A stretch of DNA of 43,868 nt from Octopus sinensis (lineage: Eukaryota). The DNA lies in contig NW_021834975.1 in NCBI RefSeq assembly GCF_006345805.1, forward strand, positions 1 through 43,868. Direction: 5' to 3'. Positions 3,301-43,225 of this stretch are shown here, piece after piece (position 1 is the first letter of the stretch; each line of letters begins with the position of its first letter). The position numbers and the translations under genes are program-made. The notes under the pieces are model-generated. The model was not told the DNA's origin. It did no database searches and was given only the letters and a program-made list of their open reading frames with translations.

Positions 3301-3614
3301 TTAGAAATACTGAATTTCTAAATGTCTCAAAGAGACATGAACAGTGGTGGGGTGATAAAGTGGTTGTATAAAGTCAACATAACGTGACAGTCCCGTAGAG
3401 GGAATTACACCACCGCTATATAGCCCTAGGAAGCATCGACGCTTCCTGTCGGCTTTGACACATTTCCTGTGTCCTTATATTTGCAAAGGGGAGGCAAGCA
3501 CCCCCACCAGCTAGGACTAGCAACCTGAAGACATGCATGTTTCTGGGTCTTGCCCGTCATCAGTCCAGGATAGCGTGTCCCCGCCATCGGTGATACTTGC
3601 CAAGCCTTCTCAAG
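3301..3614 (-). mobile_element. ~314-bp non-coding hammerhead-containing element (Penelope-like LTR remnant or retrozyme-like)
   Basis: More GC-rich insert bounded on both sides by (TA)n; contains the hammerhead at 3524-3569. Confidence 0.7.
3524..3569 (-). ncRNA. Type-I hammerhead ribozyme
   Basis: Minus strand reads CCUGGA-CUGAUGA-CGGG caaga CCCA-GAA-ACAUGCAUGU-C-UUCAGG: 6-bp stem I, intact core, palindromic stem III, GUC cleavage triplet. The first pair of stem II is a C-A mismatch. Confidence 0.85.
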
Positions 3615-3639
3615 TATATATATATATATATATATATAT

Positions 3640-3895
3640 AAAAATTGAGGGAGATAAATTAATATTAATTTTAATATCAATTTAAAACCAGTAGTCCAGC
3701 ATTCAAAAATTCAAAAAATCTGAGGAGTCAGAGAAAAGTTCAAATATATGTGTATATTGGCAGGGCTGGCCTGCTAGGTAGCCGGCCAGAATGCTAGAAA
3801 TAGATCATCAACGATCAAACTACAAGGGAAATTCTCTAGAGGAAGAATTCAGCGAACACCAGAACCAAATTTGGCGGGCAGGACATATGAAAAAT
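3640..3895. mobile_element. Unclassified repeat remnant adjoining the TA tract
   Basis: Starts abruptly at (TA)n like the neighbouring element; no diagnostic motif found. Confidence 0.3.
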
Positions 3896-3926
3896 TAAAT
3901 AAAAAACAGACTTAAATGCATACCTC

Positions 3927-5140
3927 GGTATCTTAAAATATCTTGAAATACTAAAGAGTAAAATTTTTCAATAAAATCGCCATTGGCTTCAACCACGGCC
4001 TCCAAACGACTTCGGAATCTTCTGCAACTCTTCTGGACGGTCTCCTTGTTTAAGTTGGTGAATGCTGCCATAATCATTGCCTTCAGTTCATCTTTGGTGT
4101 AACAAGGAGTTTTGTTGGTCTCTCACTCAACTGCGCCCTACATATAATAATCAAGTGGATTGCAGTCTGGAGAGTTAGGTGGCAAGATGTTAGGGGTAAT
4201 GTAGCTGCAGAAATTGTCCGACAGCCATGACTGGCTTCTCCTGCTTGTGTAGCATGGTGCAGAGTCATGTTGCCAGACATAGGGTCTTCCAGTAGCCACC
4301 CTCTTGAACCAGGGCTACATTATCTCCTCCAAGCACTTGATGTAGGCCTCTGTATTGAGTGTGAGGCCATATGGGAAGATGAATGGAAGCATAATGTCGC
4401 CATCACTGGTGATCACTCCAAACACCATGATGTTGACTGGATGTTTGATTTTTTCATTCTCAGTACATGTTTTGGGGACACGGCAAGCCGACGTTGTTCT
4501 GTGTTCACCATTTGATCCTGGCAGAAATTTTTCTCCTCTGAGAAAAACCAAAGCATATTTGGTTGGAGTGGATGCTTGAGTTTGTTCAAAAGCTTCGTAG
4601 CACGTTCTTTCCTCTTGTACTTGATGGTTTGGTATAAAATTTTCCCTTTCTCATCTTGTATGAGGAATGCCGAATGTCTTCATGCACTACCTGCCTGATA
4701 AAAAACTCAGACACACCTATGTCCCTGGGGATGAACCTCCTTGACTCGGAGGGTTGATTGTCAATCGTGCCTTGGATCTCACCAGCAAATTCAGGAGTTC
4801 TTTTCTTCTCCGAGCGATCAAAATGTGTTTTCCGAGCTACTGTACCTTCGTAATCACCATTAGACTCATCCAACTCTTTCCGAATTCTCTGCACTGTCCT
4901 TACATTGACAGCCAAACACTATGAAATGTGTGAATAGGAGCTTCTGACGCGAATGCCAAGCACTACAGCATGTCGTTTCCAAATTTCTGGCAGAATGAAT
5001 TGTGCCACGGTGCTGTTTGTCTCACAGACGGTGCCCAACTGATCCTACTATACTGTGTAGGCGACGAAATCAAAAGCAAACAATGCCATGCGCGAAATTG
5101 AAAATATAAAATGGCGACAATTTACCCTTCGTACCCTGTA
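3927..5140 (-). mobile_element. Tc1/mariner DD37D (maT) transposon with decayed transposase
   Basis: WQHD-SAPCYTS...PPNSPDCNPL-DYY has exactly 37 residues between the two Asp; C-terminus RFRSRLEAVVEANGDFIE; N-terminal HTH-like segment (VNVRTVQRIRK). One terminus is TA-CAGGGTACGAAGGG at 5138-5140; stops and frameshifts are present. Confidence 0.92.
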
Positions 5141-5309
5141 TATGTGTATGTATATATGTATATGTATGTATGTATATATATATATATATATAATATAAAT
5201 ATATATATATATATATATATATATATATATATATATATATATATATATATATATATATATATAATATATATATATATATATATATATATATATTCTTTTA
5301 TATGAATAT

Positions 5310-6060
5310 ATATTCTTTTATTCTCTTATTTTTTCCGTCATTTGACTGCGGCCAAATCGAACCCAAGACTTATTCTTTTTAAGCCTACTACTTATTCTAT
5401 CGGTTTCTTTTGCTGAACGGGTAAGTTATGGGGACGTGAACACACTAAAATCAGTTGTGAAGCGATAGTGGGGGGACAAACACAGACACACAAACACACA
5501 CACATATACAACGGTCTTCTTTCAGTTTCTGTCTACCAAATCTACCCACAAAGCTTTGGTCGACTTGAGGTTATAGTAGCACGTTCAAGTTGCCACGCAG
5601 TGGGACTGAACCCAGAACCATGGGGTTGGTAAGTAAGTTCCCCTCCATACCACACAGCCATTTCTATATATAGGCACAAGTGTGGGGGGTGAGAGGTATG
5701 CTTCTCAACCACATGGTTCCAGATTCAGTCCCTCTGCGTGGCACCTTGGGTAAGTATCTTCTCGTATAAACTCCGGCCAACTAAAGCTTCGTGATTTGAT
5801 TTGGTAGACGGAAACTAAAAAAGAAGCCCATAATATATATAAGTGTGTGTGTGTGTGTGTGTGTGTGTGTGTGTGGTGTGTGTGTTTGTGTGTACTTGTG
5901 TCTGTGTCTGTCCTCCTCTCCAACAACCGGTTGGCAAATGGTGTTACTGTGGTTACATCCTCATAACTTAGCGCTTTGGGGAATACATCAATAGAATAAG
6001 TATTCTTTAAGGCGGTGCCCCAGCATTGCCACAGTCTAATAAGTGAAGCAATTAAATGAT
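5310..6060. mobile_element. Two degenerate SINE family A copies, head to head (about 5310-5662 minus; 5670-6060 plus)
   Basis: Family motifs gttcagtcccactgcgtggcaccttgggcaagtgtctt and atttggtagacggaaactgaaagaag, with an internal microsatellite. Confidence 0.85.
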
Positions 6061-41230: not shown

Positions 41231-41331
41231 TAATAATAATAATAATAATGATAATGATAATAATAATATTAGGGAGTATAACTCCAAACTTACAGGGAAA
41301 AATTCAATTTAGTATTAAATCAAATTTCACA

Positions 41332-41479
41332 ATATAAATTAGGGAAAAAACACTATTACGCGATTCAAACAATGACAGGTGTATGTTTTAATAATATATT
41401 TTATTTTTTATTTATGATTTGGTTTATGTCAATCATTGTTTGAATTGCATAATAGTGGGTTTTTTTCTCTAATTTATAT
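41332..41479. repeat. Imperfect ~45-bp inverted repeat
   Basis: atataaattagggaaaaaacactattacgcgattcaaacaatga versus tcattgtttgaattgcataatagtgggtttttttctctaatttatat. Confidence 0.8.
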
Positions 41480-41499
41480 ATATATATATATATATATAT

Positions 41500-42820
41500 T
41501 CCTTAATCCTCTTGTTTGTTTCAATCATTTGACTGCGGCCATGCTGGAGCACCGCCTTATTCTTGAGCACCGGGACTGATTCTTTGTACGTCTAGCACTT
41601 ATTTTATCGGTCTTCTTTGCTGAACCGCTAAGTTACAGAGACGTAAAAACACAAACATCGGTTGACAAGCGATGGAGGGGGGACCACACACACACACACA
41701 CACACACACCCAGATATATATACATATATATATATATATATATATATATATATATATATATATATATATATATATGATGATTCGGTGTCTGACGAAGATT
41801 GAAGGCTTCGAATGATTTGTCTGTGTTCCGTGTTCGTCCCTTCCTGTATTTCACGTTCATTATATATAAAAACATTCATTCTTATACTATTGCGGCGTTA
41901 CGTGCACCCCCCCCCCCTTTTGTTTGTCCAATTTTAAACCCTGCACGACTTCTATATACACTGTCTTTCTACCCGCCATTGCTTCTTCACCAAACTTTTT
42001 GGCGCCCTCCGATTCTTCTTCCCCTCTCTTCCTCCCATCCTCCTCCCATCCTCCTTAATCCCTTCTTTCTCCTTTTCTCTTGGTCACTGATTCTGTCCCC
42101 TGCCTTCCATCCTCTTTGATTATTCCCTCTCTCTCTGTCCTCTCTTTCTCTCTCTCTCCTGCAACCTGCTGCTCTTAAACCATTCTGTTGGCCATCGTAT
42201 CTCGACCAACATGTGTCCCCGCTACCGAAACGGTAATTATTTCTACGCCAGCTATGTTGTTTTTGTTTTTTGTCTCATTTGGTCTAAAGTCGTATAACAA
42301 CCACCGTTATATATATTTTGTTTATTCATTACTGTTTTCAATTTCGTTTTCGTCTCTTGTATTTACATCCGTCTTGTGCGTTCACATTCCTGTCTTCTAC
42401 CAGAAATCTAATGCTTACAGCTTAGTTTTTTTTCTTGGGGCTGGCCGAGTTGGAGCAAATATCAGAATTGAACAGCCGAAATTGCTATGATGATTCGGTG
42501 TCTGACTGAAGATTGAAGGCTTCGAATGATTTGTCTGTGTTCCGTGTTCGTCCCTTCCTGTATTTCATCACGTTCATTATTATAAAAAAAAAATTCATTT
42601 CTTTAATATATATATATATATATATATATATATATATATATATATATATATATATATATATATATACGACGGAACTTTTTTCAGTTTCCGTTAACAAATC
42701 CACTCACAAGGCCCAAGGCTATAGTGGAAGACACTTGCCCAAGGTGCCACGTGTGTGGCTGAACCCGGAACCATGTGGTTGCTAAGCAAGCTATTTACCA
42801 CACAGCCACTCCTGCGCCTG
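41500..42820 (-). mobile_element. SINE family A split at its internal (TA)n by an ~830-bp insert
   Basis: 3' half at about 41500-41710 and 5' half at about 42665-42820. Confidence 0.85.
41774..42605 (+). mobile_element. Non-coding element with ~110-bp terminal direct repeats (Penelope pLTR-like)
   Basis: atgatgattcggtgtctgac...cacgttcatta at 41774-41880 and 42487-42600; flanked by (TA)n. Confidence 0.7.
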
Positions 42821-43067
42821 ATAATAATATAAATAATATATATATATATTTATTTATTTATGTATATTTATTTATGTAGGTATGTGTATATTTATGAGTA
42901 TGTATGTGTATATTTAAATGTATGTATGTGCATGTGTATGTCCGTATATCTATATGTATATATAGGCATATGTATAGTGTATATGTATATATGTAAGTTT
43001 TTATGTGTATATGTTTGTTATATGTGCAGACATGTAGGTTTACGTACGTAGAGATGTACGTTTATAT

Positions 43068-43225
43068 ATAGGGAGAGTTTACGAAAAAAAAACAAAAGAC
43101 GAAGACAGGTGGTGTACAAAACAAGCAGATGTATTAGTATAACGCTTAGGAATAGAAAAGGTCTTTTACGTTTCGAGCCTACGCTCTTCTACAGAAAAGG
43201 ACACAGAAAAAACACGAGAAAAATA
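43068..43225 (-). mobile_element. Short Penelope-like element with a hammerhead motif (same family as 11620-11796)
   Basis: Shared aagacgaagacagg...gatgtattag...tacgtttcgagcctacgctctt. Confidence 0.7.
43163..43198 (-). ncRNA. Minimal type-I hammerhead motif with a variant core
   Basis: UUUU-CUGUAGA-A-GAGC guag GCUC-GAAAC-GUA-AAAG; core A6 is changed to U. Confidence 0.55.

Follow-up and report, generated by a model that had tools for sequence, protein, structure and literature searches.

Hammerhead motifs in the window

The stretch analysed here, referred to as the window, comprises the 43,868 nucleotides (nt) of contig NW_021834975.1 from Octopus sinensis (assembly GCF_006345805.1). It contains seven type-I hammerhead ribozyme motifs in six sequence families, designated A to G in order of position, and as a set they are far above chance expectation. 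The motifs are likely to be inert footprints of retrotransposition by Penelope-like elements (PLEs), namely decayed ends of pseudo-long terminal repeats (pLTRs) together with solo retrozyme-like units. Three stems, an open-ended stem I and an NUH triplet are present in all seven; the core, C3U4G5A6N7G8A9 (or its U3-A8 form), and the GAAA are intact in five (A, C, D, E and F) and carry one change each in B and G. All hammerhead copies in the window are solo. An earlier note on this DNA had reported six motifs, each of which was located where the note placed it, but had overlooked the seventh, the canonical type-I hammerhead E.

The excess was measured in two ways. Our own hammerhead descriptor, with a strong match defined by a score of at least 7 and local dinucleotide shuffles of the window as the control, gave five matches in the window against a mean of 0.17 (maximum 1) in 40 shuffles. 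With the U3-A8 core permitted it gave six (A, C, D, F, G and E) against a mean of 0.43 (maximum 2) in 200 shuffles, and none in the reversed window. The score was devised with the sites already known, so these shuffle figures are somewhat generous, and tighter limits on loops and stems leave one site only. The outside test was the published consensus for PLE minimal hammerheads (PMC4209133, supplement; this source, PMC7229834, PMC7761336, PMC11167929 and 10.64898/2026.07.22.740005 are cited throughout for the portions of them that were available), which was set beforehand except that one core mismatch was permitted. This consensus includes an extra base after A9, G10.1-C11.1, a palindromic 15.2/16.2 and a stem I of at least 3 bp. 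The sites that it identified in the window were B (11670), F (34529) and G (43194) alone; it gave no match in 298 of 300 shuffles and one match in each of the remaining two. The observed counts were therefore equalled in 0 of 200 shuffles with the descriptor and in 0 of 300 with the PLE consensus, and neither test gave the similar motif counts in shuffled sequence by which the earlier note's inference would have been refuted. Hammerhead B fails the descriptor and passes the consensus, A, C, D and E do not fit the consensus, and each of the six sites first noted passes at least one of the two tests. Rfam recognised only E as a hammerhead among the 150 matches listed of 241 in the window, and A, C and F had no match in narrow scans (B, D and G had no narrow scan and were not among the matches listed).

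The minimal hammerheads are B, F and G, which share an extra A after the core and a G10.1-C11.1 pair. Hammerhead F (34489-34534, minus strand) is an exact fit to the published PLE consensus, with an intact core, a 6-bp stem II, an AUGU stem III and a GUU triplet (predicted cut after 34494). Hammerhead B (11667-11700, plus strand) has the core CCGACGA (U4 to C), a 3-bp stem I and a predicted cut after 11697, and hammerhead G (43163-43198, minus strand) has the core CUGUAGA (A6 to U), a 4-bp stem I and a predicted cut after 43167; both have an ACGU stem III, a GUA triplet, a 4-bp stem II and a U-rich 5' flank, and their stem I consists of just 3-4 A-U or G-U pairs. They lie in two copies of one element, B being a unit of about 160-175 nt between (ATAG)n and (TC)n (11620-11795, plus strand) and G the second copy (43065-43225, minus strand). 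The copies are 86.8% identical over 106 nt and lie on opposite strands, 31 kb apart; as the earlier note had it, no other motif-bearing elements share sequence. Their 26-nt identical block was not counted as significant (by a rough estimate about 0.15 such blocks are expected at that identity). The B family is likely a Penelope pLTR remnant. By eye, a pyrimidine-rich tract and a branch-point-like word lie just 5' of B (11620-11669, plus strand); an intron ending at helix I is possible in PLE pLTRs (PMC4209133).

Hammerheads C and D have intact cores, lack the extra base and carry longer palindromes than the minimal motifs. Hammerhead D (20611-20730, minus strand) has a stem I with seven of eight positions paired, a stem II of 5 bp with an AU-rich loop of 75 nt, an 8-nt palindromic stem III (ACGAUCGU) and a GUC triplet (predicted cut after 20619). 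Hammerhead C (12292-12351, minus strand) has a 6-bp stem I, a 4-bp stem II, an AUA triplet (predicted cut after 12298) and an 11-nt near-palindrome with one mismatch as stem III; it is a weak member of the set that could still be a chance match, its score being reached by about 0.1 matches per shuffled window. A splice-donor-like word, judged by eye, lies upstream of C (12350-12400, minus strand). The sequence flanking B, C, D, F and G shows no unusual degree of structure (z -0.5 to +2.2).

Element A (3302-3614, minus strand) is a 313-nt non-coding unit with TA runs on both sides, the first 135 nt or so of which fold into a rod (z -3.35) with the hammerhead at its tip. Hammerhead A (3524-3569, minus strand) has the intact core CUGAUGA, a 6-bp stem I, a C-A mismatch at 10.1/11.1 in stem II, a 10-nt palindromic stem III (ACAUGCAUGU) and a GUC triplet (predicted cut after 3530). 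Its UAU bulge and its loop II, CAAGA, resemble the canonical loop-contact build by eye, without an Rfam match. We regard A as a probable retrozyme-like solo unit. Like element E, it combines a length of 200-300 nt and a G+C content of 48% with a canonical motif at the tip of a rod.

Element E and its family

Element E (23993-24188, plus strand) is a 196-nt unit between CA/CT microsatellites, of which approximately 23998-24146 is shared across the family. It folds into a rod of about 160 nt with the hammerhead at its tip (z -5.6, with none of 200 shuffles as stable; z -5.1 in a second estimate). Hammerhead E (24031-24107, plus strand) has the U3-A8 core UUGAUAA and an AUC triplet (predicted cut after 24084), and its G10.1-C11.1 pair, CAAAAA loop II and UAC bulge in stem I are as in the Rfam consensus. 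It matches Hammerhead_HH9 at 38.9 bits, below the gathering threshold of 52 (E-value 1.7e-6 window-wide).

Comparison at the level of the family was made for E; the descriptions of A, C, D and F are of single copies and that of B/G is of two. Contigs at least 80% alike to E numbered 603, 401 and 586 in DNA runs from three related organisms, each from a different study; the first of these runs may come from the same source as the window itself. Summed depth, which is not a copy number, peaks on the ribozyme: in run X1 it reaches 45,367 there and about 2,000 on the arms, the contig of the locus itself having a depth of 40. E is thus a high-copy family of which the ribozyme is the best-kept part. 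Among the 40 of 76 variants listed, none falls in 24050-24069, the block that holds the core, loop II and the greater part of stem II. In stem III, 24075 T>C occurs at frequencies of 0.40, 0.38 and 0.43 in the three runs alongside 24082 A>G at 0.38, 0.40 and 0.44, and in the extension of stem I, 24040 A>G (0.79, 0.76 and 0.73) occurs alongside 24092 T>C (0.74, 0.73 and 0.74); the matched frequencies of these paired changes suggest linkage. The majority of loose ends read as a perfect 10-nt palindrome, ACAUCGAUGU, followed by GUC. CpG-type changes affect C11.1 at 0.24-0.32 and G12 at 0.16-0.19 of depth, so that many E copies are broken.

A contig of another organism matches 24056-24188 (133 nt with 6 differences), the low-copy tail included, a match that suggests an insertion both old and shared, or perhaps a close paralogue. 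One contig of run X1 carries the 58-nt ribozyme module repeated head to tail. Candidate evidence for an E transcript and its cleavage came from run X23, taken by guess to be RNA, and was rejected: the six contigs concerned are less than 95% alike to E, their matching ends lie near 24074-24077 and their loose ends continue in altered sequence, which shows neither. One upstream loose end in this run matches 24165-24175 at 10 of 11 positions, a weak and unconfirmed hint of a unit of about 200 nt. Pattern scans gave no match for the B/G and E patterns in metagenome contigs and none for the F and B/G patterns in genome contigs; the sole match to the E pattern in genome contigs was a chance 21-mer in a Desulfuromusa metagenome-assembled genome, without GAAA or stem I. 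The stem III of A and the majority stem III of the E family are 10-nt palindromes that are identical apart from an exchange of the two central bases, a likeness that may reflect common origin or convergence; the elements have no other BLAST similarity.

Genomic context

The window is rich in microsatellites (99 tandem-repeat entries) and in short interspersed repeats, which we take to be short interspersed nuclear elements (SINEs). Several of the latter occur in many copies, some as tandem or inverted pairs (2017-2620, 5353-5840, 10091-10533, 15229-17369, 20079-20512, 24220-25689 and others), and a frame in one of them has four matches, of which three carry an organism name, in each case an octopod; these include predicted proteins from Octopus bimaculoides and Argonauta hians, in keeping with an octopod source. 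Hammerhead motifs lie on average 128 nt from a microsatellite; the corresponding means are 414 nt for random positions (p 0.01) and 388 nt for 38 SINE-like copies (p 0.007), in a small test of seven sites two of which (B and G) belong to one family. The association with microsatellites proposed in the earlier note is thus upheld at p of about 0.01, and PLEs are known to favour microsatellites as insertion sites (PMC8557442).

Pfam searches of the 419 frames of at least 38 amino acids (aa) returned zf-RVT, a hAT dimerisation piece, a helix-turn-helix domain (DUF4817) and weak or spurious matches. The zf-RVT match lies in an open frame of 207 aa at 7108-7815 (plus strand), the C-terminal part of a non-LTR retrotransposon. 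This frame has 189 relatives, the best about 70% identical; the region that follows zf-RVT is presumably a restriction-like endonuclease (RLE). Relatives of this long interspersed nuclear element (LINE) fragment, compared over 7192-7812, occur in Octopus sinensis (72%, with 65% of the query covered) and also in Penaeus and cnidarians. A frame at 35110-35388 (plus strand), without a Pfam match, resembles what we take to be the C-terminus of an RTE-type LINE. DNA-transposon remnants are represented by the hAT dimerisation piece and the DUF4817 domain (21928-22056, minus strand, and 26333-26701, plus strand), and a transposase-like frame at 4318-4918 (minus strand), also without a Pfam match, is presumably mariner-like.

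Further repeats include two 93%-identical copies at 41776-41880 and 42489-42599 (plus strand), 713 nt apart, with a CUGACGAA-like start followed by GAAU rather than GAAA; this repeat fails all descriptors and is possibly a decayed further hammerhead family. An AT-rich repeat occurs at 19300-19480, where it carries CUGAUGA and GAAA on the minus strand without a stem II, and at 41337-41474, where it has inverted ends. Two copies (82% identical) of a repeat of about 200 nt that ends at microsatellites lie at 28270-28472 and 32556-32766 (plus strand), and no hammerhead was found in them. An AT-rich satellite with a period of about 160 nt occupies 12900-13300 and 14050-15000.

Origin of the motifs

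The earlier note placed the motifs with the type-I hammerheads that mark PLE pLTRs and non-LTR retrozymes, a placement that our comparisons support (PMC4209133, PMC7229834). B, F and G agree with the PLE consensus in details that no generic descriptor demands (the extra base after A9, G10.1-C11.1, self-complementary 15.2/16.2 and, in B and G, the U-rich 5' flank), which argues for the link to Penelope. The build of these three motifs, and with less clarity that of C and D, is the minimal one of Penelope pLTR ribozymes; they would be terminal-repeat ends left by shortened insertions. A and E, canonical hammerheads that each cap a long rod, would be solo monomers of retrozyme-like non-coding derivatives. 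What is observed is the motifs, their excess over chance, their closeness to microsatellites and the high-copy E family with its paired stem changes and CpG decay; the Penelope link, cleavage and circle formation in the parents and the present inactivity of the copies are what we infer. As no reverse transcriptase (RT)/GIY-YIG open reading frame (ORF) was found in the window, the units are classed only as likely remnants of PLEs and not as PLEs, and as no tandem array or circle was seen for them they are not classed as retrozymes; they behave like remnants of both. The earlier description of the elements as non-autonomous in their own right is not established: truncated ends of ordinary Penelope elements would account for B, F and G equally well, and no linked ORF was found.

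The steps by which such footprints could arise are carried over from the literature by analogy. In active parents, tandem copies would be transcribed by read-through and the ribozyme would cut after the NUH triplet, as a dimer through the palindromic stem III or perhaps, in E-type copies, as a monomer; canonical invertebrate hammerheads often cut as monomers. The cut RNA, optionally circularised, would then be copied by the Penelope RT/GIY-YIG protein into AT-rich or microsatellite DNA. Most insertions would be shortened or monomeric and keep one ribozyme, and the solo copies would then decay. Stem III formed between two molecules has predicted energies of -13.3 kcal/mol for A and -10.0 kcal/mol for D, and neither hairpins alone, which fits cleavage as a dimer. 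Dimer cleavage in place is unlikely: each copy stands alone, the stem III palindromes vary among them, and B and G, the one pair within a family, each have a defective core and are separated by 31 kb on opposite strands. Dispersed single copies are the rule among published PLE hammerheads (PMC4209133), and retrozyme monomers are common (10.64898/2026.07.22.740005).

Several observations weigh against an origin as Penelope footprints. None of the window's 419 frames matched a Penelope RT or GIY-YIG domain, the linked frame that the earlier note had proposed to look for, and no tandem unit of the ribozyme elements occurs within the window. The preferential conservation of the core that the same note required is not seen in the B/G pair, where the CUGA half differs at three of seven positions and each copy breaks a different conserved base. 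In the E family, the invariant block at 24050-24069 may partly reflect the seeding of contigs onto that stretch, and the paired stem changes fall short of proof of linkage. No unit-length head-to-tail joint of E was found in the contigs of four runs, although these contigs are short and could hide one.

Chance resemblance in DNA rich in A+T and in repeats is refuted as an explanation of the set. It could draw on the recognition by Rfam of E alone, below gathering, on the single core mismatch and the 3-4-bp A-U stems of B and G, and on the imperfect stem III of C; against it are the counts that no shuffle equalled and the paired changes across the E family. Co-opted copies that cut host pre-mRNA from the minus strand, as proposed for amniote intronic hammerheads, are very unlikely. 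A, C, D and F are intact-cored and lie on that strand, and the E locus or a close paralogue has been kept in another organism. However, the earlier note's count of five out of six motifs on the minus strand, while correct, is not a significant bias (p = 0.22; five of seven with E, p = 0.45), B and G belong to one family in opposite orientations, and E, the best motif, is on the plus strand. The stems are also weak, dimer cleavage would lack a similar partner close by, and no host exon was found in the window; the minus-strand host transcript suggested in that note is not supported. It is also improbable, if less so, that the elements are SINE-like and were moved by a non-Penelope LINE of the RTE or RLE type, in the manner of schistosome Sm-alpha. 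The LINE fragments at 7108-7815 and 35110-35388 (the family label of the latter being our assumption) and the lack of a PLE ORF in the window would suit such a course, but the motif elements share no sequence with these fragments, B, F and G fit the PLE consensus, and inspection by eye revealed neither a poly(A) tail nor clear polymerase III boxes.

A reading compatible with Penelope footprints, but in our view less likely than not, is that E, and perhaps A as the other canonical family, belong to live non-LTR retrozymes with tandem arrays elsewhere and abundant self-cleaved circular RNAs, the window copies being their recent monomer offspring. It is favoured by the UAC bulge and CAAAAA loop of E, which are features of canonical tertiary contacts, by the stable rods of A and E, by unit sizes of 196 and 313 nt that fall inside the 170-400-nt range of retrozymes, and by the circles that mussel retrozymes form (PMC7229834); the head-to-tail ribozyme module in run X1 points the same way. 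Against it stand the missing unit-length joint, the heavy CpG-type decay, the fact that most matching contigs are less than 95% alike to the window's E copy, and the 133-nt match with 6 differences in another organism, which suggests an old insertion. In addition, just one of nine frog retrozyme dimers cleaved in vitro, and the other eight did not. Footprints of Penelope-like retrotransposition remain our preferred, and likely, explanation.

Comparison with known systems

Hammerhead_HH9 is a conserved amniote intronic family. Element E aligns with its Rfam model (RF02275) over 77 of 77 positions, including the UAC bulge, the CAAAAA loop and the core, but scores below gathering and is one copy of a decaying high-copy repeat.

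The closest likeness of the minimal motifs is to PLE pLTR hammerheads (Cervera & De la Pena 2014, PMC4209133), with which they share the core and extra base, G10.1-C11.1, a self-complementary stem III, a short stem I and their occurrence as dispersed singles. The published alignment contains Lottia and Crassostrea motifs of almost exactly the build of F, and two variants are on record for PLE hammerheads: the U3-A8 core seen in E is a covariant described in schistosome PLEs, and palindromic stems III of 8-10 nt, akin to the longer palindromes of C and D, are listed for Aedes and Saccoglossus (PMC4209133). The window motifs differ from PLE hammerheads in having no linked ORF in the window. In addition, the stem II of B and G has 4 bp against 7-8 bp in schistosome motifs, and the 75-nt loop II of D is longer than any in the compared part of the published alignment (PMC4209133). 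The Anolis Poseidon element PAc likewise has a pLTR hammerhead and AT-rich insertion, but its ORF begins at stem II, and no such open frame is evident after the window motifs (PMC11167929). PAc inserts in vitro without need for ribozyme cleavage (PMC11167929), so cleavage may even be dispensable for insertion.

Animal non-LTR retrozymes resemble A and E in their canonical type-I hammerhead and in their non-coding, self-paired unit of 200-300 nt (PMC7229834; Li, Clavereau & Pollet 10.64898/2026.07.22.740005; PMC7761336). Solo monomers are a recognised state of retrozymes, whose proposed origin is from PLE pLTRs (same sources). Retrozymes form tandem 150-450-bp units and circular RNA, whereas the units here are not in tandem in the window; the 48% G+C of A and E compares with values of 'under 45%' (or 'below 50%') given for retrozymes in the available parts of these sources. 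E also differs from the animal retrozymes compared in those parts in that its canonical loop contacts go together with a U3-A8 core and a palindromic stem III of 10 nt.

Dispersed minimal hammerheads occur in thousands per genome and in many families from cnidarians to amphibians, molluscs included (PMC4209133). Approximately 9,000 minimal motifs are reported in Xenopus (PMC4209133), up to 120,000 motifs in axolotl (PMC7229834) and 235 hammerhead-1 Rfam matches in the giant squid (PMC6962438), and retrozymes have been described in mussels (PMC7229834). Our literature searches, which covered octopus and cephalopods in general, found no published account of these elements; Repbase and Dfam, which lay outside the search, may already hold the families. 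The PMC4209133 supplement file searched has no octopus entry, and a motif search of the PMC8557442 supplement gave no match to the window elements, the octopus Naiads there being compared incompletely. In the available text of preprint 10.64898/2026.07.22.740005 the invertebrates are insects and a coral only, and its supplementary species table may bear on novelty.

The finding extends the known phenomenon of PLE and retrozyme hammerheads to octopods. The earlier note's dense and diverse population is diverse indeed, with six families of which one (E) is high-copy, but its density, now about one motif per 6 kb or about 160 motifs per Mb, was measured on one selected window only. If that density held genome-wide there would be several hundred thousand motifs per genome, above published counts, and a large natural set of variants for asking whether PLE ribozyme cleavage acts in vivo. 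A more speculative proposal, and a rather doubtful one, is that octopods carry the densest and most varied hammerhead load among animals, together with one family that is a live circular-RNA retrozyme and, with its canonical contacts, family-wide U3-A8 core and covarying 10-nt stem III, can switch between monomer and dimer cleavage. Set beside the known systems, what remains surprising is how densely the motifs lie in this one selected window, together with the hybrid build of the E family.

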